Shown one piece after another: positions 6,352 through 37,328 of a stretch of DNA of 37,688 bases. Positions within the stretch are counted from its first letter, which is position 1. Every line of letters starts with the position of its first letter. The DNA is taken from positions 1 through 37,688 of IMG/VR virus record IMGVR_UViG_3300032038_000024; one strand, written 5' to 3'. Made by a program: the position numbers and the translations under genes. The notes beneath the pieces are model-generated. The model saw nothing but the letters and a program-made list of their open reading frames with translations, did not search any database and had not been told where the DNA came from. The stretch is from a virus (lineage: Duplodnaviria > Heunggongvirae > Uroviricota > Caudoviricetes).

Positions 6352-6382
6352 AAGAAAAAATAAAGGGTAACTTTGTTACCCT
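6352..6382 (-). terminator. Terminator of clpX
   Basis: Minus strand AGGGTAAC-AAA-GTTACCCT then TTATTTTTT; overlaps the clpX stop. Confidence 0.8.
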
Positions 6383-7587
6383 ATTTGTTTTTTGACATAA
6401 TCAATATCAACTGTTAATTCTTTTATATCTGATGAAGGTGCATCAAACATTGCTCGTGTCATAATGTTTTCCATTGTTCCTCTTAATCCACGTGCACCTA
6501 ATTTATTTTCGATTGTCTTATCTACAATATAATTAAGTGCCTCTTCAGTAAAGTTCAAGTCAACATTATCAAGTTCAAATATTCTCTTATATTGTTTGAT
6601 AAGAGCATTCTTTGGTTCAGTCAATATCTTCATTAATGCTTCCCTATCGAGTTCATCAGTATATGTAATTATTGGCATACGACCGATAATTTCAGGAATC
6701 AAACCAAATGCTTTTAAATCAAGAGGAGTAATCTTTGACATAAATTCATCATCAGATGTCTTTCCTTCAACTTGTCTTTCTGCTACTGCATTAAAACCTA
6801 CAGTATGCTGATTACATCTTTGTGCAATCTTCTTTTCAATACCAACAAATGCTCCTCCACAAATAAACAATATGTTTTTTGTATCAATTTTTACAAGTGG
6901 AGTATCTGGGTGTTTACGACCACCTTTAGGAGGTATTGATACGATAGATCCTTCAAGAAGTTTCAAAAGACCTTGTTGAACACCTTCACCTGATACATCT
7001 CGAGATATTGATGCATTATCTCCCTTTCTTGCGATCTTATCTATTTCATCAATAAATACAATACCTCTTTCTGTCTTTTCTACATCATAGTCTGCTGCTT
7101 GATAAAGATTAACAAGTACAGATTCTACATCTTCACCAACATAACCTGATTCTGTTAATACTGTTGCATCAGCAATTGTAAATGGAACATTAAGAAGTTT
7201 TGCAACAGTCTTTGCAATTAAAGTCTTACCAGTACCTGTTGGACCAACTATACATATATTTGACTTTTCAATTTCAACATCATTTACAATTGGAGTAGAA
7301 ATTCTCTTATAGTGATTATATACAGCAACAGCAACACGTTCCTTAACTCTATCTTGTCCGATAATATATTGGTCAAGGAACTCTTTTATTTCGTGAGGCT
7401 TAGGAATACCTGACATTAAGTTTTCACTAACCTTTTCATTTTGTTCTCTTACAGTATTGAATGCTTGGTTAACACAGTCAGAACATATATAACCAAAATT
7501 ACCTTCAAGCAATAATGGAACCATGCTTTGTGGTCTACCGCAGCATACACAATATTTCTCTTGTACTTCTGTTTTATTATCTTCCAT
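6376..7587 (-). CDS. clpX: ATP-dependent Clp protease ATP-binding subunit ClpX
   Basis: C4 zinc-binding domain (CVCC...CSDC), Walker A GPTGTGKT, Walker B FIDEID, RDVSGEGVQQGLLK, VGF loop, LGARGLR; ATG at 7587. Confidence 0.95.
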   Translation of the reverse strand: MEDNKTEVQEKYCVCCGRPQSMVPLLLEGNFGYICSDCVNQAFNTVREQNEKVSENLMSGIPKPHEIKEFLDQYIIGQDRVKERVAVAVYNHYKRISTPIVNDVEIEKSNICIVGPTGTGKTLIAKTVAKLLNVPFTIADATVLTESGYVGEDVESVLVNLYQAADYDVEKTERGIVFIDEIDKIARKGDNASISRDVSGEGVQQGLLKLLEGSIVSIPPKGGRKHPDTPLVKIDTKNILFICGGAFVGIEKKIAQRCNQHTVGFNAVAERQVEGKTSDDEFMSKITPLDLKAFGLIPEIIGRMPIITYTDELDREALMKILTEPKNALIKQYKRIFELDNVDLNFTEEALNYIVDKTIENKLGARGLRGTMENIMTRAMFDAPSSDIKELTVDIDYVKKQIG

Positions 7588-7629
7588 CAACGATTATTTT
7601 AAATTACTAAATATAATATATTAATATAG

Positions 7630-12754: not shown

Positions 12755-14136
12755 TACTTAAAATCCTTTTCAATTTCTTTCTTTAAATTATTCAAGTCAT
12801 TCAAATACATTTGTTTTTCGGTTGTATTCTTAATATATTCGAGTTCCTTTTTCATTGATTCATTTTGTTTAAGCAATTCATCTCTTTCCTCAATAGTAAC
12901 TTTTGACATTGGTGTACTTATCAATTCCATTGGAAGTTTATAATTATCCATGTCAACCTTGATGTCTGCTTTTGCTCTATTACGAATTTTAAGTTTACCT
13001 TTACATACAAGTTCAATAAACTTTACTAATTCGTCATTCTTTTTAATTCTTTCTTCAAGAATTTTTACAAGTTTCTTTTTACGTTCAGTATAAATACTCA
13101 AACGATAAAGTGTAAAGTATTCAATTACTTCATTCTTATTTGCAAAGTTCTTCAACTTATGATTCTCATCAAGAAGCCAAAGTAAATCATCAGGAAGCTG
13201 TTTAATCAATTTGAATTTATTTGCAATTCGTTTTCCTGAACGATCCTTTTTCATTTCAATTGCAAGTTGTTTCTTAGGAAAGAAAATTTCATAATTGACA
13301 CCACCATCTGTTGACTTATTTTTCCATTCCTTTATATAATCTTCATCCTTGTACTTATAAAGTAATTTTTCAAAATCTTCATATGATACATCAGCTGGAA
13401 GGTCAGTAACTATCATCAAGTCTTTTGATTGATTAAGTTTCCATTCTCCATAATTAAACCATGTACCTTCTTCAAATCTCCAATTCTCCTTTTTAATACC
13501 TTTAAGATAAGGACGAACAACAGTTTTTATTTTATCTTTCTTATCTATACGAGCATTCAATACTTCTTTACAAGCTTCAATAATATCAATTGGATCATAT
13601 GCCTGATTGTGCATTGAATAACCTACAGCAACACCAATATTATTCTTACATAGAACTGTTGGTATGATTGGAAGATATGTCATAGGTTCAACATACTGTC
13701 CTTCTTCAAATACAAAATCTAACAAGTCATAATCAGTCTTATAGATTAAGTCCATATACTTTGAATGCTTAACATAAAGATAACGAGGAGCACCAGCAGA
13801 ATCAGGATCTCTCAATGAACCTACCTGAGAGTCAGATTCAAGTGGATTTAAATTATCTGTAAATGTTCGACACATTCTTACAATTGTATCGTTAAGTGAT
13901 GCATCACCATGTGCATATAATGATACTCGCATTGCATCACCAGACAATGCTAACAATTTATATAGTTTACCATCTTTTGTTGTACCTGCAAGACTTGCAT
14001 GCATAATCTTACGAGCACCTGGTTTAAATCCATCAATAACAGATGGTATAGCACGTTCCTCTAATACAGAAAATGCATAATTAAGATATTCTGTATTTAA
14101 GAAATTTGTTATTGTTCTTTTAGTAATCTTTTCCAT
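12754..14136 (-). CDS. Type IIA DNA topoisomerase cleavage subunit (T4 gp52/GyrA-like, no C-terminal pinwheel)
   Basis: ERAIPSVIDGFKPGARK, YAHGDAS, catalytic APRY, GIAVG-like GVAVGYS; 460 aa. Confidence 0.93.
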   Translation of the reverse strand: MEKITKRTITNFLNTEYLNYAFSVLEERAIPSVIDGFKPGARKIMHASLAGTTKDGKLYKLLALSGDAMRVSLYAHGDASLNDTIVRMCRTFTDNLNPLESDSQVGSLRDPDSAGAPRYLYVKHSKYMDLIYKTDYDLLDFVFEEGQYVEPMTYLPIIPTVLCKNNIGVAVGYSMHNQAYDPIDIIEACKEVLNARIDKKDKIKTVVRPYLKGIKKENWRFEEGTWFNYGEWKLNQSKDLMIVTDLPADVSYEDFEKLLYKYKDEDYIKEWKNKSTDGGVNYEIFFPKKQLAIEMKKDRSGKRIANKFKLIKQLPDDLLWLLDENHKLKNFANKNEVIEYFTLYRLSIYTERKKKLVKILEERIKKNDELVKFIELVCKGKLKIRNRAKADIKVDMDNYKLPMELISTPMSKVTIEERDELLKQNESMKKELEYIKNTTEKQMYLNDLNNLKKEIEKDFK

Positions 14137-14708
14137 TACAAGTATTTAATATTTATAAATCGTTCATCGAAAACATCATTTGTTAACCATGCACCACCGC
14201 TTCCTTCAGATTCAGAAATAGACCAATCAGATGGCTTTAACATGCCGACCCAAATATTTTTAATAGTTAAATCTTCATCAGCATTTTTTGGCTTATTAAA
14301 TGCAGTAAAAATATAAAAATGAAATTCATCTTCTTTATATTTACTACCTTTGCCTTTACCTGCATTTGTTTTCGCACCATTAATTCTTTGGTTTTTATTA
14401 CATGTCGTTTTACCCTCAGTATTATAAAATGGATCTAATAAACACATACAATCAGCATCTTTTGTATCATTGCCTTTTGTAAATTCTAATCCTTTGTTGT
14501 TATTTTGTGTCAAATATAATGGTATCAACCCATCAGATATATTACCTATTAATGTACCGAATGAAGATTGTTTAATTAAAATTTCCTTAAATTGTTTATC
14601 AGTTTTGTTTAAATTGTCATTAATAAAATTTGTAACTCCATTAACTGCACTTAATACATCAATAGTCTTTACATATTTTTTTACATTTTCTAAAATTTGT
14701 TTATTCAT
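14136..14708 (-). CDS. ScaI-like PD-(D/E)xK endonuclease, free-standing
   Basis: IGN..DGLIPL / KDAD / NTEGKTT / FYIF..F.K / IWVGML..SDW pattern resembles the ScaI restriction endonuclease family from memory. Confidence 0.55.
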   Translation of the reverse strand: MNKQILENVKKYVKTIDVLSAVNGVTNFINDNLNKTDKQFKEILIKQSSFGTLIGNISDGLIPLYLTQNNNKGLEFTKGNDTKDADCMCLLDPFYNTEGKTTCNKNQRINGAKTNAGKGKGSKYKEDEFHFYIFTAFNKPKNADEDLTIKNIWVGMLKPSDWSISESEGSGGAWLTNDVFDERFINIKYL

Positions 14709-21876: not shown

Positions 21877-22160
21877 AATATTAATCGTTCCTCAGTACCA
21901 ATATCACCCTCTTCATCGTTATGATAATGCCACCATTGTTCTTCAAGTTCAAAATAATGACCTTCTCCAATTTCAGCATCTAATTCATCGGCTAAAAGCA
22001 TAGCAGCTGCACATAAACCTTCTCTATATCCTTCTTGAAGATAATATAATTGTTCTTCATTCAAATCGTCTGATGTTATTGTGCCTTTACGAAGATCTCT
22101 GATATTGTTAATGTATTTCTTTAAATTTTGTACTGGTATTATAGGAGCTAAACGTTTCAT
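21873..22160 (-). CDS. Hypothetical protein (95 aa from MKRLAP)
   Basis: ATG 22160 directly follows the upstream stop; the track's longer start overlaps that gene. Confidence 0.7.
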   Translation of the reverse strand: MKRLAPIIPVQNLKKYINNIRDLRKGTITSDDLNEEQLYYLQEGYREGLCAAAMLLADELDAEIGEGHYFELEEQWWHYHNDEEGDIGTEERLIL

Positions 22161-22161
22161 A

Positions 22162-22509
22162 TTACCAAATATGCTGAAACACAAATAATTGTGCCGGTGT
22201 TTTTGTATATTTCTTAAGAACCTTTTTAAGTTCTGGATTTTCTTCAATTATTTTGTTATATTCAGATGTTGCTTCAGTAATCAATTCTGAATTTATAACA
22301 ACTGGATCCGGATCTTCACCTGCATCATAATTAACTAATATTGCTCCAAAATATAAATAATTGCCACACATTGTATCATCAACCATTATATTTTGAAATT
22401 TATCCCAGTACTCTTCATCAACCTTTTCCAATTTTTTACCAATTTTACGAACTTCATCACTACCTTCAATTTTCCATCCATAAATTACTATTGTGTGATT
22501 GTCTATCAT
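22162..22509 (-). CDS. Hypothetical protein (115 aa)
   Basis: ORF track. Confidence 0.8.
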   Translation of the reverse strand: MIDNHTIVIYGWKIEGSDEVRKIGKKLEKVDEEYWDKFQNIMVDDTMCGNYLYFGAILVNYDAGEDPDPVVINSELITEATSEYNKIIEENPELKKVLKKYTKTPAQLFVFQHIW

Positions 22510-27019: not shown

Positions 27020-27457
27020 TTAAACTTCGTTTCGGCGAGCTTCATATTCTGCCTCAAGTTCATCAATTTCAGAGTTATCCCAACTCTCAACTCCACGTCC
27101 CTTAAAATGAGTGGAACCAATTGTATCGTAAGCTATCTGAATAAGAGCAACTAAATCAGCAGAATGAAACGAATAATGTTCAGTGTCGGGCCACGGCCAA
27201 GGTTTTTCTGAAACAATATTTTCATAATCATTACCTGTTGAATTATAATGGAGATGAACATGAAGTTCTCCGTTCACAACAGTGAAATACTTGATGCCAT
27301 GATTGTAAAATTTTCGAGCAGCCTCACATGAACTGTAATCATTTCGATTTGCAAGAAACTCAAGAGGAAATACATCGACTTTATTCTCAGTCATATAATT
27401 GATAATTGACTGAATTAACCCGGCACAAAAACTCTCTGTTGTATACATATTCATCAT
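27020..27457 (-). CDS. Hypothetical protein (145 aa), monocistronic unit between promoter copy 5 and a terminator
   Basis: ORF track; flanked by promoter and terminator; elevated GC. Confidence 0.8.
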   Translation of the reverse strand: MMNMYTTESFCAGLIQSIINYMTENKVDVFPLEFLANRNDYSSCEAARKFYNHGIKYFTVVNGELHVHLHYNSTGNDYENIVSEKPWPWPDTEHYSFHSADLVALIQIAYDTIGSTHFKGRGVESWDNSEIDELEAEYEARRNEV

Positions 27458-27476
27458 ATTAAATATTTTTTATTGA

Positions 27477-27520
27477 TTACAAATATAATATAGTAATCTT
27501 TATAAAAAATTAAATAATAT
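27477..27520 (-). promoter_or_regulatory. Conserved bipartite promoter, copy 5
   Basis: ttacaaatataatatag-taatcttta-taaaaaattaaataatat. Confidence 0.8.
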
Positions 27521-27529
27521 TAGAAAAAA

Positions 27530-27823
27530 TTAATAACTTAATTGATCTTTTGCCCATTGTGATAATACTTCTATAAGATCATCTTCCCAGCGTTCAATAT
27601 CTTTACGATCCCATTCACATTCATTTTCAAGATAATCAAAAGCGTCATCAACCAATGGATCATTTTCTTTATCTGCCATTGCTTTCATATCATCCATAAA
27701 TTCATGACGACTATTATATCCATCTTCAACACAATGTTCATCCCACCATTCTGATAAATCATTTGTCATATCTTCGAGGTCATCTTGAGATGATTCTAAA
27801 ATAAAATTTTTAATATCTTTCAT
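27530..27823 (-). CDS. Very acidic protein with capsid-targeting-like leader (putative internal head protein, DNA-mimic candidate)
   Basis: MKDIKNFILE|S leader; 32 D/E versus 9 K/R in 97 aa. Confidence 0.75.
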   Translation of the reverse strand: MKDIKNFILESSQDDLEDMTNDLSEWWDEHCVEDGYNSRHEFMDDMKAMADKENDPLVDDAFDYLENECEWDRKDIERWEDDLIEVLSQWAKDQLSY

Positions 27824-27826
27824 AAC

Positions 27827-28138
27827 TTATTTTAAATATTCATTATATTTTGGATTGATTCCATAATGATCATCCTTTTCATTATATTCATAAGATTTCA
27901 ATACAAGATAGTTTCCTGGGTCATCTAAATCGTAGAAACCATTATTAGTTGTTGCAATTAACCAATATTCTTTATTGTTTGCTTCTTCTTTAAGTTTCTT
28001 TAATTCATTAACGGCTTTCAATAAATCACCTTCACCCCAATCGGAAACAACTGAGTCATCTCCTCTATCGATGATTTTAAAACCATCTACATTAAATTCT
28101 TTACTATCTGTTTTCAAATATTCAACTATACTTCTCAT
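27827..28138 (-). CDS. Hypothetical protein with variant leader MRSIVEYLKTDS (103 aa)
   Basis: ORF track; hydrophobic pattern at positions 4, 7 and 8 matches the array leader but E10 is missing. Confidence 0.7.
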   Translation of the reverse strand: MRSIVEYLKTDSKEFNVDGFKIIDRGDDSVVSDWGEGDLLKAVNELKKLKEEANNKEYWLIATTNNGFYDLDDPGNYLVLKSYEYNEKDDHYGINPKYNEYLK

Positions 28139-28168
28139 ATTATTTAACTTTGTATTGCAAATAATTTA

Positions 28169-28176
28169 TATTTATA
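28169..28176 (-). promoter_or_regulatory. Possible T4-type late promoter TATAAATA
   Basis: Exact TATAAATA 30 nt upstream of ATG 28138 in intergenic DNA; the octamer is also common by chance in AT-rich DNA. Confidence 0.35.
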
Positions 28177-28197
28177 TAAAAATAATTTTTAGTTATT

Positions 28198-28983
28198 ATG
28201 AGTAGCTGTATTTTTACAGTAATTAAAAATGAACATAACTATATAAAAGATTTTATTGATTATCATTTATCATTAGGAATAGATCATATTTTTATATTTG
28301 AAGATATTGGAAGTATTACACATAAAGAAATAATTGATAATTATCCTAAAGATAAAATTACATTAAATTGTGTTGATATATTAAATTTAGAAATATTTAA
28401 TCAATCTGAATATATTAGAAGTGGTTTATTATGGATAAGAGATAATTTTGATTATGATTGGTGTTTTTCAATTGATTGTGATGAATTCATTACTGTTACT
28501 GATGAATTTCCAAAATTATTAAACGATTATATTAAATATGATGCAATTATGTTACAGTGGAAAAATTACGGAGCGTCAGGATATATTTATAAGCCAAAAT
28601 ATGATAAACCTATTTGGGAAATTTATACAAAGGAATGCGGTTATACATATCAAGATAAAAAATTTTGCAATTATACAAAACTGTGTTTTAATATGAAAAG
28701 ATTACAAGAAAGATTTATAGCAGGTAATCATACTGCATTATGTAATTTTGTTCGTCCTGATTTTACATGGAAAAGAAATGTACCTGTTTATGATAGAATA
28801 TATTTAAGACATTATATTACAAAATCATTTGAAGAATATGTTTGGAAATTAAAAATAAGAGGTATGATGTGTAAAACACATAGATATTATTCAGATTTTT
28901 TTGAAATGAATGAAGATATGATTGATAGAAAAAATGAATTAATAAAATTAGCAGATAATATAATAAAAATGAATAGAACTTAG
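28198..28983 (+). CDS. Glycosyltransferase family 2-like (GT-A fold, GT2_4/GT92-like)
   Basis: IFTVIKNEHNYIKDFIDYHLSLGIDHIFIFEDIGS, WCFSIDCDEF (DxD), LRHY.TKS.EEY. Confidence 0.85.
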   Translation: MSSCIFTVIKNEHNYIKDFIDYHLSLGIDHIFIFEDIGSITHKEIIDNYPKDKITLNCVDILNLEIFNQSEYIRSGLLWIRDNFDYDWCFSIDCDEFITVTDEFPKLLNDYIKYDAIMLQWKNYGASGYIYKPKYDKPIWEIYTKECGYTYQDKKFCNYTKLCFNMKRLQERFIAGNHTALCNFVRPDFTWKRNVPVYDRIYLRHYITKSFEEYVWKLKIRGMMCKTHRYYSDFFEMNEDMIDRKNELIKLADNIIKMNRT

Positions 28984-29001
28984 CTAAGTTCTATTCATTT
29001 T
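28966..29001. repeat. Perfect 36-bp palindrome with no spacer between convergent genes
   Basis: aaaatgaatagaacttag|ctaagttctattcatttt equals its own reverse complement. Confidence 0.95.
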
Positions 29002-29007
29002 GTTTAT

Positions 29008-31866
29008 TTAAGGAGCTGCAAATATTCTTGATGCAATATTTCTCCAGTTAGTTGCATTTTTATATGCATCAACTGAACCTGCAGGTACATAAATAGGATA
29101 TGATAATGCTCCACTAAATGATTCATTATCCATTTGTGGTGGTGTTGTTGCTTCCATTGTAACAGATGTTAAATGTGTATTATAAAATGCTCTATATCCA
29201 ATATATGTACATGAAGCTGGTATAACAAGATCTATTGCAAGACTAGTACAATTTCTAAATGCCTCACGTCCAATACTTGTTGCTGATGCAAGTGAATTAA
29301 TATTACTTAATTTTGGATTATCACATAAACAATAATTACCAAATATCTTAATATTACTTAAATCAAAATTTTTCAATTCTGCACAATTACATACTGATTC
29401 ATTTTTTAATTCAGTACATCCAGGACCTATTGACATTGTTACAAGAGCATCACAAGATCTAAAGCCATAATATGGAATTGGTACAGTTAATTTAGGTAAT
29501 GAAATTTCAATTAATTTATCACAATTATAAAATATATAATCAGAGTTCCATGTTTCAAGTGATGATAAATCAATTTCTTCTAATCTACTCTTTTCTCTAA
29601 ATAATTGACCGGCACCATTAAATGATTTACATTTTGTCAATACAACTTTTTTGAAATTTGTACCTTCAGCAAATGTTGCATAATATTGTATAGCTTCTAA
29701 TTCAGGTAAATTCAATAAATCAAGATTAGGATTATTTGCAAATATCCAATCTGAATTTAATGATTTTAATTTTGGTAAATCAATTATTTTACAATTATCT
29801 AAATGTCTAAAATGCTGATTACCATCTGCAAATTGTACTAAATTTGGTAAATGTATTTCTTTTAATTTTGAACATCCATAAAATGCAGAATTTCTAACAA
29901 TTGTTAAATTATCTAAACCTGTTATATATTCACAATCATATAAATAACTTAAACCTACTTCTTTTACTTCAACAAGACTTCCAAAATTTATTTTTGTTAT
30001 TCCATAAGATTCTCTAAATGCCCACCCATCAATTACAGTACAATTTGGGAATGATATTTCTCCTAAACCTTCTTCTCCTGAAGTACCTAATTCTCTAAAT
30101 GCAGAACCTCTAATATATTCAGCAACACATGTATTATTAGGACCTATACTTTTTATTTTTTTACATCTATATAAAGTAGATCCTTTAATATCTGTAACTT
30201 TAGATATATCTACAGATTCAAGTTTAGGACACTGAGCAAAAGCATTACTATCTGCAATTGTTGTAAGTTTAGGGCAATTTACTTCAATAAGATCATAACA
30301 ACGTAAAAATTGTTCAGAACCACTAAATCTTACAACTTCAGGTAAATTAACTTTTGTAATACCGTATGAATCTTCAAATGCTCCCCCATTAACTTGGGTT
30401 GCTGCATCAAATGTTATTTCACCTAATCCTACTTCACCAGAAGTACCAATTTCTCTAAATGAAGATCCATTAATTGTTGTAATTAATGGAATATGTCCGT
30501 CATCACTTATGCTTTTAATATGTTTACATCTATATAAAGATGTACCACCAAGATAAGTAACATTACTTAAATTAATGTGATCTAAATTTGTACATTCTTG
30601 GAATGCATTATCACCAACATATGTTAAATTACTTGTATCACCTATATTTATTAATGAATAATCACCACGAAAACATTCGTTATTAATTCTTGCACAATTT
30701 TTTAAATCAACATCAATTAACGAACTACAATATCTAAAAAATGAACCATCTAAAGTATAATTTAATTGGCTTTCAGGTAATATAACATGTTCTAATGAAT
30801 TACAATTATAAAAAAATCCTCTTAATCCAGAAATAGATGATGTAAGATTTGATAAATCAACAGTTCCTACTAAATTTTTACATCCATTAAAACAATTATA
30901 TCCAGCAGATACAAGATTTGTTGCATCATAATGTCTTAATTCATAACAATTGATAAACAAATCATAACCTAATGTTGTAATGTTTTTCCCTAAATCATTT
31001 GGGAAAACGTATTCATTACAACCATTAAATGCTTCATAATTAACAGTTGTTATTTTATCCCAATCAATATCAGTAGTAAGTAATTTATTGCATCCATAAA
31101 ATAATCTTCTAGGTATAGATGTTAAATTATTCATACCTAAAACAGTTTCTAATTTTTTAGAATTATAAAAAAGTCCTTCATTAAATAAATTTACATGTGC
31201 AGATTGTAAATTAGGCATTGCTTCAAAAACATAATTACCAATTGAAATTAAATTTTGAAAATCAACACTTGCTAATCCTGAACCTAAAAATGCATGATTT
31301 TTCAACGTAGTAATATTTGATGTATCTCCAATATTTTCCAATGCAATTGCATTTTTAAACGTTTGTTCACCAATAACTACAGCATTTCGTAAATCAATTT
31401 CTTTTAATGTTTTATATTCTCTAAATAAGTAATTTGGAAATGATGTAAAATTTTTAAAATATCTCCACTCATTTAGATATTCAATATCAGGATAATTTTT
31501 TAATACAGTTTCACTAATTGTTGATGTTGTTGAATTAAAATATTTTGCAGTACCTTCAGTTATACCAATAGTATCACCAAATACATTTGCACACATTTTT
31601 TCAGCCTTTTTATCTTCAAAATCTATATAATATTCACCAGTATGCAATATATGAAAATCTTGATAAGATTCATTAAAAAATCTTAACATATGTTCATATA
31701 TATTTTGTATTTCAACAGATCCCTTTAAGATACAATTAAAATCTGATGATGTAAATGATTTTTGTATTATATGATATAATTTATATAATGAAGCGTTTGA
31801 AACATGTTCATATGTTGCATTTGCAACATCTTGTTCATTTGTTTGTTTTACAATTAGTGTTTTCAC
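29008..31866 (-). CDS. BspA-type leucine-rich repeat (LRR_5) protein (952 aa)
   Basis: Repeated IG..AF..C..L..I.LP/xxLxxI units; C-terminal ATTPP....F...IYVPAGSVDAYKNATNW; GTG start; no signal peptide seen. Confidence 0.9.
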   Translation of the reverse strand: MKTLIVKQTNEQDVANATYEHVSNASLYKLYHIIQKSFTSSDFNCILKGSVEIQNIYEHMLRFFNESYQDFHILHTGEYYIDFEDKKAEKMCANVFGDTIGITEGTAKYFNSTTSTISETVLKNYPDIEYLNEWRYFKNFTSFPNYLFREYKTLKEIDLRNAVVIGEQTFKNAIALENIGDTSNITTLKNHAFLGSGLASVDFQNLISIGNYVFEAMPNLQSAHVNLFNEGLFYNSKKLETVLGMNNLTSIPRRLFYGCNKLLTTDIDWDKITTVNYEAFNGCNEYVFPNDLGKNITTLGYDLFINCYELRHYDATNLVSAGYNCFNGCKNLVGTVDLSNLTSSISGLRGFFYNCNSLEHVILPESQLNYTLDGSFFRYCSSLIDVDLKNCARINNECFRGDYSLINIGDTSNLTYVGDNAFQECTNLDHINLSNVTYLGGTSLYRCKHIKSISDDGHIPLITTINGSSFREIGTSGEVGLGEITFDAATQVNGGAFEDSYGITKVNLPEVVRFSGSEQFLRCYDLIEVNCPKLTTIADSNAFAQCPKLESVDISKVTDIKGSTLYRCKKIKSIGPNNTCVAEYIRGSAFRELGTSGEEGLGEISFPNCTVIDGWAFRESYGITKINFGSLVEVKEVGLSYLYDCEYITGLDNLTIVRNSAFYGCSKLKEIHLPNLVQFADGNQHFRHLDNCKIIDLPKLKSLNSDWIFANNPNLDLLNLPELEAIQYYATFAEGTNFKKVVLTKCKSFNGAGQLFREKSRLEEIDLSSLETWNSDYIFYNCDKLIEISLPKLTVPIPYYGFRSCDALVTMSIGPGCTELKNESVCNCAELKNFDLSNIKIFGNYCLCDNPKLSNINSLASATSIGREAFRNCTSLAIDLVIPASCTYIGYRAFYNTHLTSVTMEATTPPQMDNESFSGALSYPIYVPAGSVDAYKNATNWRNIASRIFAAP

Positions 31867-31892: not shown

Positions 31893-32780
31893 TTATTTTA
31901 CAGCAGACTTCATAAATTTATCATCTTTAAGTTTATTCATTGCTGAACCTTCTTTATCAGGTAATGAAGTCTTCTTGTCATCTTCATCTGTTCCACCTTT
32001 AAACGCTTGTGGCATCTTTGCTCGACCAGGTGCAGATTCTGATGGATAATTGTTTGCTTTAATATTAAGTAAACTATTTGTAAGCCACTCAACTAAAGTC
32101 TTTTTATCTGTTATTTCTTTTATATATTTATGGAAGTCATCTATTAAAGATTCATCCAAATTGTCTGCAATATAATTTTCAATTTTTTCTTTATCAAAAC
32201 TTTTATCGAAAAAGTTAGGACCTTCAACTTTACTTGATGGAAGACTACCATTATTATCGTTATCTTCAGCTTTAACAGCAGCAATAGTTCCTTGTACTGC
32301 TTTAAGCATTTGAATTGGACTTATATCACCATCATAATTAAATGCTGCAATTTTTCCTTTTGGATTTAATGCTATTGCTTGAAGCCAAGTATGATGTCCA
32401 TCAATAACATAATTCTTTCTAAATGTTACAATTGGCCATTTAATTAAAATAGGATCTGTAAACGTTTTCTCTAATGATCCTTTTTCTTTTAATGCATGAC
32501 AAAGAGACTTATTCAAATCAATTTCACTTTGTGTTGGCATCAATTGAGATACAGGAATTTCTTTATAACTAAAAGTTAATTTTGTATCTCCAAGTTTACC
32601 ACCAAAACCATCTTCAAGTAACGCTTTAGATTTTGGATCTTCAAGCATCTTGTTTAATGTATCAACATAATCATCATAGTTTTTATGTTTTAACCATTTC
32701 TCAAGTTCTTTACGACGTTGTTTGTTTGAATTAGTTTCTATTTCACGAGATTCAAATATATATGAATTAATTTTTTTCAT
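31893..32780 (-). CDS. ParB/Srx-fold protein with capsid-targeting-like leader (295 aa)
   Basis: MKKINSYIFE|S leader; IPVSQLMPTQSEI, PIV....YVIDGHHTW. Confidence 0.7.
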   Translation of the reverse strand: MKKINSYIFESREIETNSNKQRRKELEKWLKHKNYDDYVDTLNKMLEDPKSKALLEDGFGGKLGDTKLTFSYKEIPVSQLMPTQSEIDLNKSLCHALKEKGSLEKTFTDPILIKWPIVTFRKNYVIDGHHTWLQAIALNPKGKIAAFNYDGDISPIQMLKAVQGTIAAVKAEDNDNNGSLPSSKVEGPNFFDKSFDKEKIENYIADNLDESLIDDFHKYIKEITDKKTLVEWLTNSLLNIKANNYPSESAPGRAKMPQAFKGGTDEDDKKTSLPDKEGSAMNKLKDDKFMKSAVK

Positions 32781-32782
32781 TA

Positions 32783-33280
32783 TTATTTAAATTCTTTAAG
32801 ATATTTTTTAAGATCTTTAATAGCTTCTTTATGCCAATCTTCAGTACCTTCTAATTTAAATCCCCAAGAACTACGTTTATCATTTAATATTTCTTGTATA
32901 TCTTTACCATCCTTATCACTATTAATAAGTTCTTTATTATAAAGCACCCAATATTTAACTGATTTGCCGCGATATTTACTATTTTGTTTTACTATAGCAA
33001 TACCCGTTTTATCAAATTTCAAACCATGATAAAATTCAGTCATATCTTCTTTTTCTGATTTGATCTTAATACTATTTTTAAGTACCTTTTCAATTTCTAC
33101 AATACCTCTAATTTGAATGCCATATCCATCAGTATCATATTTAATCAATAAAGCCTTTTCACCTGTATTAAATGTAAAATCTTCAGATTGACGTACACCA
33201 TCTTTATGTAAGAACATTGCTTCTTTATTAGATCCATTACTTTCGAATCTTTCATTTATAAAAAAATTTATTGTTTTCAT
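32783..33280 (-). CDS. Putative internal head protein (165 aa)
   Basis: Leader MKTINFFINE|R. Confidence 0.7.
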   Translation of the reverse strand: MKTINFFINERFESNGSNKEAMFLHKDGVRQSEDFTFNTGEKALLIKYDTDGYGIQIRGIVEIEKVLKNSIKIKSEKEDMTEFYHGLKFDKTGIAIVKQNSKYRGKSVKYWVLYNKELINSDKDGKDIQEILNDKRSSWGFKLEGTEDWHKEAIKDLKKYLKEFK

Positions 33281-33281
33281 A

Positions 33282-33578
33282 TTATTTAATTCTTACATAT
33301 ATATTTATTCCACCATCAGAATCATATGATTCACCAATCTTTAACTTCTTTACTTCCTTTTCTATAGTATCGTCATCCTCAAGATCTTTTGTTGCTTGTT
33401 TTAAGTCAGCTTCAGTGTATGGTGATATCATTTCATCTTGTGTATTGATTAGAAGCCATTTTGCATTTTTATTGTCTAATCCTGGCAAATCAATTCCAAG
33501 ACTACTTGGATCTGTTACGCTTTTGAAATATTCCCAGCCTTTAGAACTTTCAGTTATATAGTTTTTGATATTTTTCAT
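33282..33578 (-). CDS. Putative internal head protein (98 aa)
   Basis: Leader MKNIKNYITE|S. Confidence 0.7.
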   Translation of the reverse strand: MKNIKNYITESSKGWEYFKSVTDPSSLGIDLPGLDNKNAKWLLINTQDEMISPYTEADLKQATKDLEDDDTIEKEVKKLKIGESYDSDGGINIYVRIK

Positions 33579-33580
33579 AA

Positions 33581-33967
33581 TTATTCTAATCTAATAATTT
33601 TATATGCTCTACCTTTTTCAATAATATCTTTATTAATACATTCATGAGTCTTTATATCATAAAGCGCATAAGCTTCAGTATGTAAATACATATTATATAA
33701 TTTTTTACTCTTAATAAACATTTTTATAATAAATACATCATTCTTAGCATCACCTGCATAATAATGAGGAGGAATTGTTAAAAGATATTTAACACCTTGT
33801 TTCTTAAGAGTATTCCACATATCATCAGTTATTGATTTCACAGTTCTTGCATCATCAACATTTTTATTAATATTACTACCAATAATATGATCCATTTCAA
33901 ATTCTTGGTTTTGAAATTTTATTTTTGTAGAAACAGCTTCATTAATAAATACATTAATATTTTTCAT
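33581..33967 (-). CDS. Putative internal head protein (128 aa)
   Basis: Leader MKNINVFINE|A. Confidence 0.7.
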   Translation of the reverse strand: MKNINVFINEAVSTKIKFQNQEFEMDHIIGSNINKNVDDARTVKSITDDMWNTLKKQGVKYLLTIPPHYYAGDAKNDVFIIKMFIKSKKLYNMYLHTEAYALYDIKTHECINKDIIEKGRAYKIIRLE

Positions 33968-33980
33968 AATTTATTAACAT

Positions 33981-34541
33981 TTATATTTTTGCAAACTGTG
34001 TATCTTGATGTTCATAACTATAATATGAACCTTTATGAGTTTCTTCATCAAGAAAATCAACAAATGCTTTTACTGTCATTGGAGTCAATTTATACTTTTT
34101 AACTTCTCCATTATCAGGTCTTAATTCATTTTTAACAGCTTTAATAAATTGTTTACATTCTTTATCTGAATTAAAGAACATACCTTGATATGTTAAAACT
34201 GGTCTAGCATAATGTTTAATTATTCCATTAATTTTTGATTGATGATTTGGGAGTTCAAACGTTTTAACTGCCACATAAATAGTATCACATAATTTAGGAG
34301 CTGTTTTAACAATATCTTCAATTGTCCATTGGTCTAATCTAAATTTATCTGGTACTGCACTATACCATTTCTTTGTATCTTTAGGATGAATATATAAATG
34401 TTCACCTTCATCATCAAATACACCAAAACTATAATTTTTTAATTCTTTATTAAGTTTTTCTATTTCATCATTAAATTCATCAAAATTTATTGATGATACA
34501 GTTTGTTTTGCTTCGTTTAAAAACTTAACTATATTTTTCAT
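33981..34541 (-). CDS. Putative internal head protein (186 aa)
   Basis: Leader MKNIVKFLNE|A. Confidence 0.7.
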   Translation of the reverse strand: MKNIVKFLNEAKQTVSSINFDEFNDEIEKLNKELKNYSFGVFDDEGEHLYIHPKDTKKWYSAVPDKFRLDQWTIEDIVKTAPKLCDTIYVAVKTFELPNHQSKINGIIKHYARPVLTYQGMFFNSDKECKQFIKAVKNELRPDNGEVKKYKLTPMTVKAFVDFLDEETHKGSYYSYEHQDTQFAKI

Positions 34542-34798
34542 ACTTCGTGACCAAATAATTTTATATCGTTGCAGAACAATACTCCAGTTTTCTTATTATA
34601 TGTTGCAATATGATCCATCATTTTATCTTTATTATTAGGAATGTATACTAATTCTAAATCAGGTTCATTTTCATAATTACCAATGAACACATCTTCTTTA
34701 GTTTCTTTTTTCCATTTTTCCCAATCAGATTTTGAATATTTTACTTGTTCTGAAAATGAAGATCCACTTTCATTAATTTTTGATACAATATCTTTCAT
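34538..34798 (-). CDS. Putative internal head protein (86 aa)
   Basis: Leader MKDIVSKINE|S. Confidence 0.7.
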   Translation of the reverse strand: MKDIVSKINESGSSFSEQVKYSKSDWEKWKKETKEDVFIGNYENEPDLELVYIPNNKDKMMDHIATYNKKTGVLFCNDIKLFGHEV

Positions 34799-34800
34799 AG

Positions 34801-35313
34801 TTATTCAACTGGCTTATTTTTCTTAAAGTCATAATGCATATATTTTTTGAATACTTCTGCTAAAATATTATACATACGACCTCCACGTTTACCAATTGCC
34901 TTTTGTTCTTTTGGTGATAATGAATCTAATGCTCTTTGTTGAAGTTCTCCATAAAGTTTAGTATTTGCTTCTTTACATTCAGGAGCTTCAGTTATCTTAG
35001 ATGCCTTTTCCATTAATTCATCAATTTGATACTTCTTTTGAATTTCATCATATTTAGAATCCCATTCAGGATCTCCATATTTTAATTTTAATGAATTAAA
35101 TTCCTTATCTGCCTTTCTTTGATTCTTAGCCATTTCATCCCAATACTTTTGAGCTTCATCTTCATATTTCTTGACAATAAGTTTTGTCTTTTCAACTTCA
35201 TCAACAAAAGCCATTAATTCTTCTTTTGTTTCAAATGGCTTAGCGGCAGTATCACTTTTACGAGCTTCATTCAATTGTAAGCCCTCATTTATTTTATTAA
35301 CAATATCTTTCAT
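34801..35313 (-). CDS. Putative internal head protein, helical (170 aa)
   Basis: Leader MKDIVNKINE|G with a second site LQLNE|A. Confidence 0.7.
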   Translation of the reverse strand: MKDIVNKINEGLQLNEARKSDTAAKPFETKEELMAFVDEVEKTKLIVKKYEDEAQKYWDEMAKNQRKADKEFNSLKLKYGDPEWDSKYDEIQKKYQIDELMEKASKITEAPECKEANTKLYGELQQRALDSLSPKEQKAIGKRGGRMYNILAEVFKKYMHYDFKKNKPVE

Positions 35314-35315
35314 AA

Positions 35316-35714
35316 TTAATAACCCTTCATAGTGTTTTTATTATCATCCATATAACGATGAGTCATATAACAAGCCTGAGCAATAACTTCAATTTTTGAT
35401 TGTTTACCACTTGTAGCTAATGAATATTGATCTATGACATCCTTTGGAGTTAATTCATAAGCCATTTTTTTATGTTTAACATTTAAAATCTTTGTAGTTA
35501 CAATATCCCAAATGTTATCTAATTCGTCTTTAAGATCTCCTTTCCAAAAACGTTGTTCAATTTCTTCCATAGAATACCAAGAATCATTTTTTGTATCTAA
35601 ACATACTTTTTTTAATAATTCTTTAGTATCATTATCAAGATCATTTGCTACAAGACGCCAATTAAACCACTTTTTATTTTTTGACTCATTTATTTTTGTA
35701 ACGATATCTTTCAT
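35316..35714 (-). CDS. Putative internal head protein (132 aa)
   Basis: Leader MKDIVTKINE|S. Confidence 0.7.
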   Translation of the reverse strand: MKDIVTKINESKNKKWFNWRLVANDLDNDTKELLKKVCLDTKNDSWYSMEEIEQRFWKGDLKDELDNIWDIVTTKILNVKHKKMAYELTPKDVIDQYSLATSGKQSKIEVIAQACYMTHRYMDDNKNTMKGY

Positions 35715-35730
35715 AATTAAAATAATTTAT

Positions 35731-36078
35731 TTAATATCCTGGAAACTCATTGCTTGCAGCAAATTGTTCAATAGCAGTAAGAATCATATCAACTACTTCT
35801 GATTTATCTCTATCTTGATGTTTATCTTCTTTAAGGAATTTTTCAAGCATTGACTTAAGTTCAGAAGACATCTTTGATTTAAATTCTTCCATTACACCTT
35901 TAACTATTTCATCATAATTAGGTTCTTTTGCACCTTTTGCATATTCCTTAATATGATCATCATCATAGTTAACTAAACCTTCTTGATACATTTCATCAAT
36001 CCAAACATCAACATATTCAAAAAATTCACGTTTTGGAGTTTTCTTACTTTCATTAATAAATGTTGTAATGTCTTTCAT
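35731..36078 (-). CDS. Putative internal head protein (115 aa)
   Basis: Leader MKDITTFINE|S. Confidence 0.7.
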   Translation of the reverse strand: MKDITTFINESKKTPKREFFEYVDVWIDEMYQEGLVNYDDDHIKEYAKGAKEPNYDEIVKGVMEEFKSKMSSELKSMLEKFLKEDKHQDRDKSEVVDMILTAIEQFAASNEFPGY

Positions 36079-36106
36079 ATTATATTATAAATCTTTATTT
36101 ATGATT

Positions 36107-36631
36107 TTATTTTCTGTATTCTAATGAGTCTTCATCAAATATTATTTCAATAGGATATTCATTTGCTTTTGATGATTCTGCTGCTTTGAAAATATCAATT
36201 AATTTTTGTTCAACATCATCATCAGTTACATCAACCATATCAAATCTATCGAATGTTATAATGTATTTAAGATTTTTGATTTTGAAATATTCTAATTTAA
36301 TTTCATCATCATTTGTTTTTTTATCATCAAACTTTGGATCCCATTCTATATACTCTTTTGGCTCAACATCGATATGTTCAAAAGTATCATATTCGAAGTG
36401 AGCATCAGATATATTATCATTATTTTTACCAAAGAACTTTTCTGAATAATCCTGAGAAGATGGTAATGAATTGAGCCACATATCATCAATGTATTGTTGA
36501 ATATCTGACTCTTGAAAAGTCTCAGGAGCTTGAAGTATTATTTCTTCAGGCTGAACATTATATGTTGCTTCAATCTCATTAAGTCTGTATGTTTCTACAG
36601 ACTCTCTGATATATTTTATTATAGACTTCAT
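36107..36631 (-). CDS. Putative internal head protein, acidic (174 aa)
   Basis: Leader MKSIIKYIRE|S; 44 D/E versus 20 K/R. Confidence 0.7.
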   Translation of the reverse strand: MKSIIKYIRESVETYRLNEIEATYNVQPEEIILQAPETFQESDIQQYIDDMWLNSLPSSQDYSEKFFGKNNDNISDAHFEYDTFEHIDVEPKEYIEWDPKFDDKKTNDDEIKLEYFKIKNLKYIITFDRFDMVDVTDDDVEQKLIDIFKAAESSKANEYPIEIIFDEDSLEYRK

Positions 36632-36846
36632 TAAACATCCTTGAAATATTTTTTAAAATCTTCAGCTGGTACACCAAATTGTTCTATAAGCCACCAATTA
36701 TCGTTTATTTTTGAAGCCTCATATTCTTCTCCTTGTTTGAATGTCATTCCACCTGTCTTGCGTTCTATCTTATATTCTTTGACACATTTGACATCATGCC
36801 ATTCAGAATAATTAGTTTTCTTTATAGATTCAACAATGTCTTTCAT
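36631..36846 (-). CDS. Array member with variant leader MKDIVESIKKT (71 aa)
   Basis: Same MKDIV start and I8 but no E10; TAATG overlaps. Confidence 0.7.
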   Translation of the reverse strand: MKDIVESIKKTNYSEWHDVKCVKEYKIERKTGGMTFKQGEEYEASKINDNWWLIEQFGVPAEDFKKYFKDV

Positions 36847-37328
36847 TATATATTGTTAGGTAAATTTTTCATATCATCAATTTTAACAACTGCCATTGGC
36901 CCATAATATTTTGAAGTAAATTGTTTAAAATATTTTTCCAATGAATCATGAGATGGTTTTCCTTCTTTCCATTTTCCATCTACAAAATATTCATATTTAA
37001 ATTCATTATCTTTTGTACTCCAAGCAGTAACTGCAGGTAAACCAGTTCCTAATTCCCAACGACTTCCATTTTCATGTTCAATTTTTCTAAGCAATGTCAA
37101 ACAATATCCATTTTCTAATGAATATTCATTTGTAATCATTTTAATAAAATCTTCTACTTTAGTTTTCTTTGTTATAATTTTTACAATAGGAAATGTAGTT
37201 GATTTCCAAGCTTTATCTTGACTTAATCCTAAATAATTTACATCATTTATACTTATAAACCATGTAGCAGATTTAATTCCTGTAATACCATTTACAGCTT
37301 CATTAATCTTGATATTTATATCTTTCAT
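36846..37328 (-). CDS. Putative internal head protein (160 aa)
   Basis: Leader MKDINIKINE|A. Confidence 0.7.
   Translation of the reverse strand: MKDINIKINEAVNGITGIKSATWFISINDVNYLGLSQDKAWKSTTFPIVKIITKKTKVEDFIKMITNEYSLENGYCLTLLRKIEHENGSRWELGTGLPAVTAWSTKDNEFKYEYFVDGKWKEGKPSHDSLEKYFKQFTSKYYGPMAVVKIDDMKNLPNNI

Follow-up and report, generated by a model that had tools for sequence, protein, structure and literature searches.

Small acidic proteins with a T4-type leader as candidate injected cargo of giant rumen phages

An acidic protein of 97 residues, encoded by a phage of the rumen, is best read as the member of a new cargo family of the T4 internal-protein kind. The full proposal, in which it would be accessory injected cargo acting as an Ocr-type decoy, has in our estimate a probability of about 0.35. 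The DNA analysed here, a stretch of 37,688 nucleotides (the window), appears to stem from a giant T4-related rumen phage of roughly 376 kb that is kin of the Prevotella Lak megaphages. These are its nearest relatives among GenBank phages (54% identity in the large topoisomerase II subunit), and window sequence was found in runs of at least 15 studies, mostly bovine gut metagenomes, with six RNA libraries among them. The IMG/VR genome G004 (376 kb, rated 98% complete) is syntenic with the entire window, with identities of 92.6% in RecA, 91 and 89% in the topoisomerase II subunits and 73% in ClpX. The gene and its parts are as follows.

27530..27823, minus strand: coding sequence of the 97-aa acidic protein (ATG 27823-27821, TAA 27532-27530)
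27794..27823, minus strand: leader codons 1-10, MKDIKNFILE, with predicted gp21-type cleavage after Glu10 (I-L-E|S)
27530..27793, minus strand: predicted mature 87-aa acidic helical domain (residues 11-97) plus stop, from alignments, model and composition

The acidic protein and its family

The open reading frame is almost certainly a real gene. Lak phages read TAG as a residue; the frame is unchanged under this code, because TAA bounds it on both sides. The first-pass annotation had counted 32 D/E, 9 K/R and five Trp in 97 residues, and 30 D/E versus 7 K/R after cleavage, and all of these figures were exact on recount (19 D and 13 E; 6 K and 3 R). The predicted mature form, which lacks residues 1-10 and would start at Ser11 with SSQDDLEDMTNDL..., has 30 acidic and 7 basic residues in 87 aa and a pI of ~4.05. 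With 33% D/E, the full-length protein is the maximum among ~70 non-overlapping ORFs of the window (mean 16.0 +/- 4.6%), and it lies above each of the 264 ORFs in the relative G001. Its net charge per residue, -0.24, equals that of T7 Ocr as taken from the T7 record. The G+C content of the window is 28.5%.

The helical pattern claimed for the protein also held up: AlphaFold2, run on the 31-sequence family alignment A2, gave an all-helical bundle (pLDDT 81, pTM 0.69) with helices at residues 4-10, 14-30, 39-50, 55-67, 73-78 and 80-96. The acidic residues occupy the non-hydrophobic faces of these helices. Conserved acidic positions are 17, 18, 22, 34, 41, 45, 55, 59 and 93, and three helices carry i/i+4 pairs of them (18/22, 41/45, 55/59). 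Foldseek searches against PDB, BFVD and AFDB clusters returned nothing significant and no PDB match. A wide VIA-align search reached a best Z of 7.1 with generic helical proteins and placed no mimic in its top 50, and a shape search of the ESM Atlas gave one unnamed cluster at TM 0.63, the named rows being all unrelated.

Relatives of the protein fall into 27 clusters at 90% identity clustering, 57-99% identical, in a word-indexed search, and into 30 representatives at 50% clustering, down to ~26% identity, in an exhaustive HMMER search. All of them are metagenomic, from uncultured phages; none is named and none has a Pfam domain. Consistently, scans of the protein and 31 family members against Pfam, PHROGs and NCBIfam gave sub-threshold noise only, the best E value of a PDB sequence-profile search was 0.16, and a protein-atlas feature search gave no usable match. 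Neither the region nor the protein nor the distant member P0047 had a match among 50,697 GenBank phage records in blastn and tblastn searches, whose low-complexity filter may hide acidic matches. The search for longer fused forms of the protein likewise found none, which is weak evidence.

In alignment A1, the leader MKDIKNFI-x-E is almost invariant, position 9 excepted, and the body is conserved. Alignment A2 yields the signature D-L..W-W...C.E-D.Y-D-S...M.A-M-A...N-D..V-D...L......A.D.L, or in short form WW...EDxYDS...ND..VD for the body; across ~30 relatives, a hydrophobic core and polar motifs are conserved, and the motifs that we grouped as non-acidic are WW, Y36, N54-D55 and A91. The gene is present in one copy per genome, and comparison with the L004 copy (96% identity) gives a dN/dS of 0.24, a value that few changes underlie. 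Most family members have 20-33% D/E, and near-neutral ones also exist (net charge -1 in P0043, -3 in P0030 and +1 in the first copy of P0042, in which two copies of the acidic domain are naturally fused in tandem). The family is spread over several phage lineages with differing leaders, those of distant members reading MKTFKEFINE, MKTIKDYIAE, MKNLKEYISE and similar. The contigs that hold the distant members P0047, P0038 and P0042 are too short for informative context.

Two further features of the family concern its termini. In one sub-lineage (L059:5947-6243 and L060), the start codon is ATA, not ATG, and the leader codons are intact and in frame (IKDIKKFILESSQ...); gene callers therefore give 79-aa products from Met19 (P0012, P0013, P0016-P0018 and P0021). 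Here, either translation starts at ATA or the tag is a recent loss. Family members that have no T4-type leader bear a Cys-rich module ending in RIARLESL or RLERLEKLL (L024:5917-6336, L023:857-1240, L018:1916-3089), which stands at the N-terminus of P0036 and P0052 and at the C-terminus of P0038 and P0042. An unrelated acidic neighbour protein of 140 aa in L018 ends in the same Cys-rich RIARLE-type module, which may be a second portable address or an oligomerisation tag.

The leader peptide and the head machinery of the lineage

The leader MKDIKNFILE, followed by Ser11, has I4, F7, I8 and E10 at the positions mapped in the T4 capsid-targeting sequence (CTS). The first 10 residues of T4 IPIII are enough for packaging, with residues 4 and 7 serving in targeting and residues 8 and 10 in processing, and gp21 cleaves after Glu in L/I-x-E (PMC9026906). 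In the T4 record, the corresponding N-termini are MKTYQEFIAE in ipII and ipIII (then Ala), MAKINELLRE in gp24 (then Ser), MKTFKEFTST... in ipI and MELITELFDE in alt.

Leaders of this type head 13 ORFs of the window. In the window and G001 together, 51 of 334 ORFs begin with the pattern versus 0.32 expected from its internal frequency, a ~150-fold N-terminal enrichment. Synonymous codons vary at the conserved leader residues (Ile8: ATA 25, ATT 17, ATC 2; Glu10: GAA 37, GAG 14), and selection therefore acts on the peptide. The bodies that follow the leader are unrelated to one another and include a NDK, a HAD hydrolase, an AAA ATPase, a DUF285 protein and a Zeta-toxin/AAA_33-like kinase (L038:4232-4738, in the relative G002); in the tagged NDK of G001 (L009:11412-11846), the catalytic domain begins at residue 19, behind the tag. 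RecA, topoisomerase II, ClpX, MnmA and the sigma factor of the window are without the leader. The tagged share of genes in the lineage, ~7-15%, far exceeds the cargo that T4 is known to load, which counts against the packaging reading, as does the presence of such enzymes among the tagged proteins.

About 20 tagged genes of G001 (contigs L006-L015) carry an extended leader, MKNLNNYI-x-EKLNIKNI (e.g. 22003-22473, 44147-44677 and 190759-192823), which is doubled in some proteins (MLSLTQHINEKLNVYINEKLNV). It forms a distinct tag sub-class with Lys after the putative cleavage Glu.

Head genes were found in the relatives. G004 encodes TerL, portal, a gp21-like protease and sheath. G002, whose cargo-array proteins are 66-90% identical to those of the window, encodes a 566-aa protein (L038:11382-13082) whose N-terminal part is a Peptidase_S77 domain (E 1.3e-11, above the cut-off) and, as the next gene, a 581-aa Gp23-family capsid protein (L038:13204-14949; E 2.8e-31, Pfam domain from residue 120). 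In both G002 and G004 (G004:212552-214165), one fused protein combines the gp21-type protease with a scaffold-like region of 8-9 tandem 12-residue repeats (VQNWVVEEFAPE); the C-terminal repeat of the G002 protein is of the V-Q-N-W-V-V-E-E-F-A-P-E type, with the variants I-E-K-W-V-N-E-E and I-D-K-W-V-N-E-E. The spacing within the repeat equals that of leader positions 4-10, I-x-x-aromatic-I/V-x-E. The leader core, [ILV]xx[FYW][IV]xE, occurs internally 0.4-0.55 times per 1000 residues, and the protease-scaffold protein accounts for 9 of its 27 internal matches in G002, where they have a 12-residue period, and for 8 of 41 in G004. To judge from these sequences, the leader looks like one scaffold repeat, cleavage site included, which would give a concrete mechanism for co-assembly and release. 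With T4 head genes as queries, tblastn found nothing in G001, L004 or the window, and a PF03420 search of G001 was blank; the G001 contig is without the head module, which accounts for the result there.

The Gp23-family protein of G002 and G004 (G004:214263-216023) begins with an extension of ~120 residues, in which a doubled motif is conserved near residue 40; in G002, it reads A-I-H-E-I-H-E|S. The I-H-E-I-H-E|S element is likely a propeptide cleavage site.

Several indirect lines of evidence thus favour the capsid-targeting leader and the packaging that the first-pass annotation had proposed for the protein: the CTS positions, the N-terminal enrichment, the conservation at the peptide level, the likeness to the scaffold repeat, the gp21-type protease in relatives and the promoter-like motif described below. 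MKDIKNFILE is probably a T4-type capsid tag, through which the protein would be packaged.

Genomic setting and promoter-like motif

The gene is accessory: the syntenic G004, rated 98% complete, lacks it. The whole segment 26927-31892 of the window has no counterpart genes at the syntenic G004 position; a glycosyltransferase-like gene is the only one of its genes with a match in G004, a distant one elsewhere in the genome. The cargo arrays of the window and L004 have few genes in common between flanks that are 75-98% identical. A strain-variable cargo locus is how T4 internal-protein loci behave, which argues against an essential head-building role. The surroundings of the gene contain the following features.

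27827..28138, minus strand: 103-aa gene, 3 nt upstream of the acidic-protein gene; L004 (91% identity) and L059/L060 have the same gene pair
28164..28184, minus strand: promoter-like composite motif TATTTTTATATAAATATAAAT, containing the T4 late-promoter word TATAAATA at 28169-28176
27480..27487, minus strand: TATATTTG, a Bacteroidota-type TAnnTTTG box, 23 nt upstream of the next gene (27020-27457)
31893..37328, minus strand: array of 12 leader-bearing cargo genes, the context of the acidic-protein gene

The 103-aa gene and the acidic-protein gene are probably co-transcribed. The 103-aa protein begins with MRSIVEYLKTD, which is leader-like at residues 1-8, has no Glu10 and has Asp at position 11. 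A T4 CTS with Asp at position 10 targets its protein, and processing is blocked (PMC9026906).

The motif TATTTTTATATAAATATAAAT sits in a divergent spacer of 59 nt and starts 46 nt upstream of the start codon of the 103-aa gene. As a composite, TATTTTTA[AT]-N0-9-TATA[AT]A[AT], it has a single copy in the window, the one ahead of this operon, and its frequency is 0.13-0.34 per 10 kb per strand. Of 34 matches, 29 are intergenic; 25 have a gene start on the same strand within 120 nt, and 23 of these lie 27-67 nt upstream of it. The composite motif precedes the portal gene and a 2830-aa gene in G004, the protease-scaffold gene in G002, a gp13-like neck gene and several giant-protein genes in G001, and a few tagged genes. 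Among the promoter words, only the composite is informative: in the window, neither the late-promoter word TATAAATA alone (20 matches versus 13 +/- 3.7 expected) nor TAnnTTTG alone (80 versus 69 +/- 7) is enriched. From this sharing of the motif, we infer that the operon would belong to the structural-gene promoter class. The TATATTTG box marks a separate transcription unit for the gene at 27020-27457.

The glycosyltransferase-like gene (28198-28983, plus strand; within 28142-29033) is an insertion/deletion polymorphism. Present in the window, it is missing in L004, L059 and L060 and is bypassed by contigs of the runs X17 and X19. In strains without it, the tagged array, the ParB-like gene, the LRR gene, the 103-aa gene and the acidic-protein gene follow on one strand, the distance from the LRR gene to the 103-aa gene is 24 nt, and the composite motif is absent there. 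In either arrangement, the acidic protein would be transcribed with tagged or structural genes.

One RNA library holds a contig of 634 nt that equals 27474-28107 with zero differences and spans the acidic-protein gene and most of the 103-aa gene, and a separate, deeper contig for the next gene downstream; these contigs mean presence in the library, not proof of transcription. In four RNA-library runs, contig breaks and loose ends cluster at 27464-27511, which marks a strain-variable junction beside the TATATTTG box.

Possible function and rival readings

On the proposed route, the acidic protein would be made together with the virion proteins, and its 10-residue leader, as a copy of the protease-scaffold repeat unit, would co-assemble it into the prohead core. 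The gp21-type protease would then cut after Glu10 (I-L-E|S) and free the 87-aa helical domain with a net charge of -23, which would stay in the head and enter the cell with the DNA. There, its polyanionic surface would most likely bind and block a host nucleic-acid-binding protein, for instance a restriction enzyme or another enzyme of defence. It would thereby be an Ocr-type electrostatic decoy that acts ahead of all phage gene expression. In this scheme, packaging, cleavage, injection and the host target are all presumptive. A role as an injected inhibitor has, in our view, slightly less than even odds. The prior for the function of tagged accessory cargo comes from T4, where three internal proteins are all injected inhibitors of distinct GmrSD type IV enzymes (PMC12373910). 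Acidic cargo is feasible, since non-basic foreign proteins such as GFP are packaged via the T4 CTS and delivered (PMC9026906).

The comparison with T4 holds in several respects. The T4 internal proteins IPI, IPII and IPIII have, as here, a 10-residue tag in which position 4 is hydrophobic, position 7 aromatic, position 8 Ile and position 10 Glu, with Ser or Ala next. Like the acidic protein, they are small cargo that is not essential and varies between strains, and their genes have other tagged genes as neighbours. The relatives of the window have a gp21-family protease and a Gp23-family capsid protein. In contrast, the T4 internal proteins are basic (pI 8.9-9.5 versus ~4), their bodies are unrelated in sequence to the one studied here, and the T4 protease is not fused to scaffold as that of the present lineage is. 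The phage itself also differs from T4: it is Lak-related, has Bacteroidota hosts in the rumen and 7-15% of its genes tagged, and is known from sequence alone.

The DNA-mimic half of the earlier claim fared less well: that the protein is a DNA mimic is a reasonable guess, though an improbable one. T7 Ocr (gene 0.3) is a DNA-mimic inhibitor of type I R-M and BREX, and T4 Arn is an anti-McrBC DNA mimic. The support for mimicry comes from composition: like the acidic protein, Ocr is small, helical and extremely acidic, with the same charge per residue and a pI of ~4.05. Ocr differs in that its gene is expressed before all others and its product is not packaged. No sequence relation between the two was seen, and the fold searches above gave no match; hhalign of alignment A2 against Ocr gave a probability of 0.3%, and there was no Pfam ocr match at E <= 0.1. 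T4 Arn and ArdA are also small, acidic anti-restriction proteins of phages or mobile elements. Arn, however, is far less acidic (17% D/E, -0.10 charge per residue) and has no sequence relation to the protein (hhalign probability 0.6%), and ArdA (PF07275) gave no Pfam match. The hhalign probability for T4 AsiA was below 1%. Within the family, acidity is not invariant.

The near-neutral members and the conserved non-acidic motifs agree with a protein that is packaged and injected and is not a DNA mimic at all, namely a target-specific inhibitor or effector whose acidity is incidental or serves solubility or ejection. The characterised T4 internal proteins each bind one enzyme variant specifically (PMC12373910, PMC3012670), IPI*, Ip2 and Ip3 acting on individual GmrSD variants, and the accessory, strain-variable state of the gene points the same way. 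We nevertheless consider this rather unlikely: the protein matches Ocr in charge density and has the most extreme value of its proteome, and the occurrence in several lineages with different leaders fits a broad target better than a narrow one. Less probable again is a role inside the head, either as a polyanionic core or packing component like the gp67-derived peptides, or as a neutraliser that holds co-packaged basic or DNA-binding cargo, e.g. the ParB-like protein, until injection. T4 gp67, a prohead core protein of 80 aa with 44% D/E and a pI of 4.1, resembles the 97-aa protein (33% D/E) in being small and very acidic; it is a head-internal gp21 substrate and the precursor of acidic internal peptides, as the protein studied here is a predicted gp21 substrate. 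Moreover, the gene shares a block with the ParB-like tagged protein in every strain seen. However, gp67 belongs to the head-gene cluster, and heads take their normal shape only with it; the acidic protein, by contrast, is accessory, encoded outside that cluster and without homology to gp67 (hhalign probability 0.05%). G004, rated 98% complete, does without it, which makes it dispensable for assembly, and retains the ParB-like gene (73% identity); conversely, G001 has the acidic-protein gene and no match to the ParB-like gene.

The leader could, finally, be some N-terminal signal other than a capsid tag, such as a tag for translation or assembly or a degron read by the ClpXP of the phage itself, on a protein that acts after expression in the cell. 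The window encodes a full ClpX with zinc finger (6376-7590, minus strand) and G004 a ClpP (G004:274307-274795); the lineage therefore has its own ClpXP protease, and an N-terminal degron is conceivable. ClpX reportedly recognises some N-terminal motifs that start Met-basic-hydrophobic, and the tag stands on many ordinary enzymes. Against this, the leader is spaced like the T4 CTS, closes with the motif of the T4 protease and equals the repeat in the protease-scaffold protein of the lineage itself, the housekeeping-type genes of the window are without it, and the operon has the structural-gene promoter motif. We regard this reading as the most improbable of those weighed here, and keep to that of packaged cargo of the T4 internal-protein kind.

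Injected proteins act before any phage gene is read and therefore decide survival against first-line host defences. To our knowledge, the only injected proteins with known targets are three, T4 Ip1-3, and we know of no way as yet to culture Bacteroidota phages of the present kind. If the tag is a capsid-loading signal, dozens of packaged proteins per giant rumen or gut phage could be listed from sequence, and the acidic protein, with its Ocr-like charge, would stand out as the candidate for a decoy with which Bacteroidota phages counter restriction broadly. The family has no relative in Pfam, PHROG or PDB, so that a structure or partner would define a new anti-defence or head-internal domain. 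It is unlikely, if conceivable, that the protein represents the first ready-made DNA-mimic decoy that is loaded in the capsid and injected ahead of the genome to block restriction-type defences before transcription, on a portable acidic domain of 80 residues that phage lineages join to differing terminal modules (a T4-type CTS in the present one, a Cys-rich RIARLE coiled-coil module at either end in others).

Elsewhere in the window, a ScaI-like restriction endonuclease domain (PF09569, E 6e-11) is encoded at 14136-14708 on the minus strand, between the genes of the two topoisomerase II subunits; between the topoisomerase homologues of G004, there is apparently no room for such a gene.
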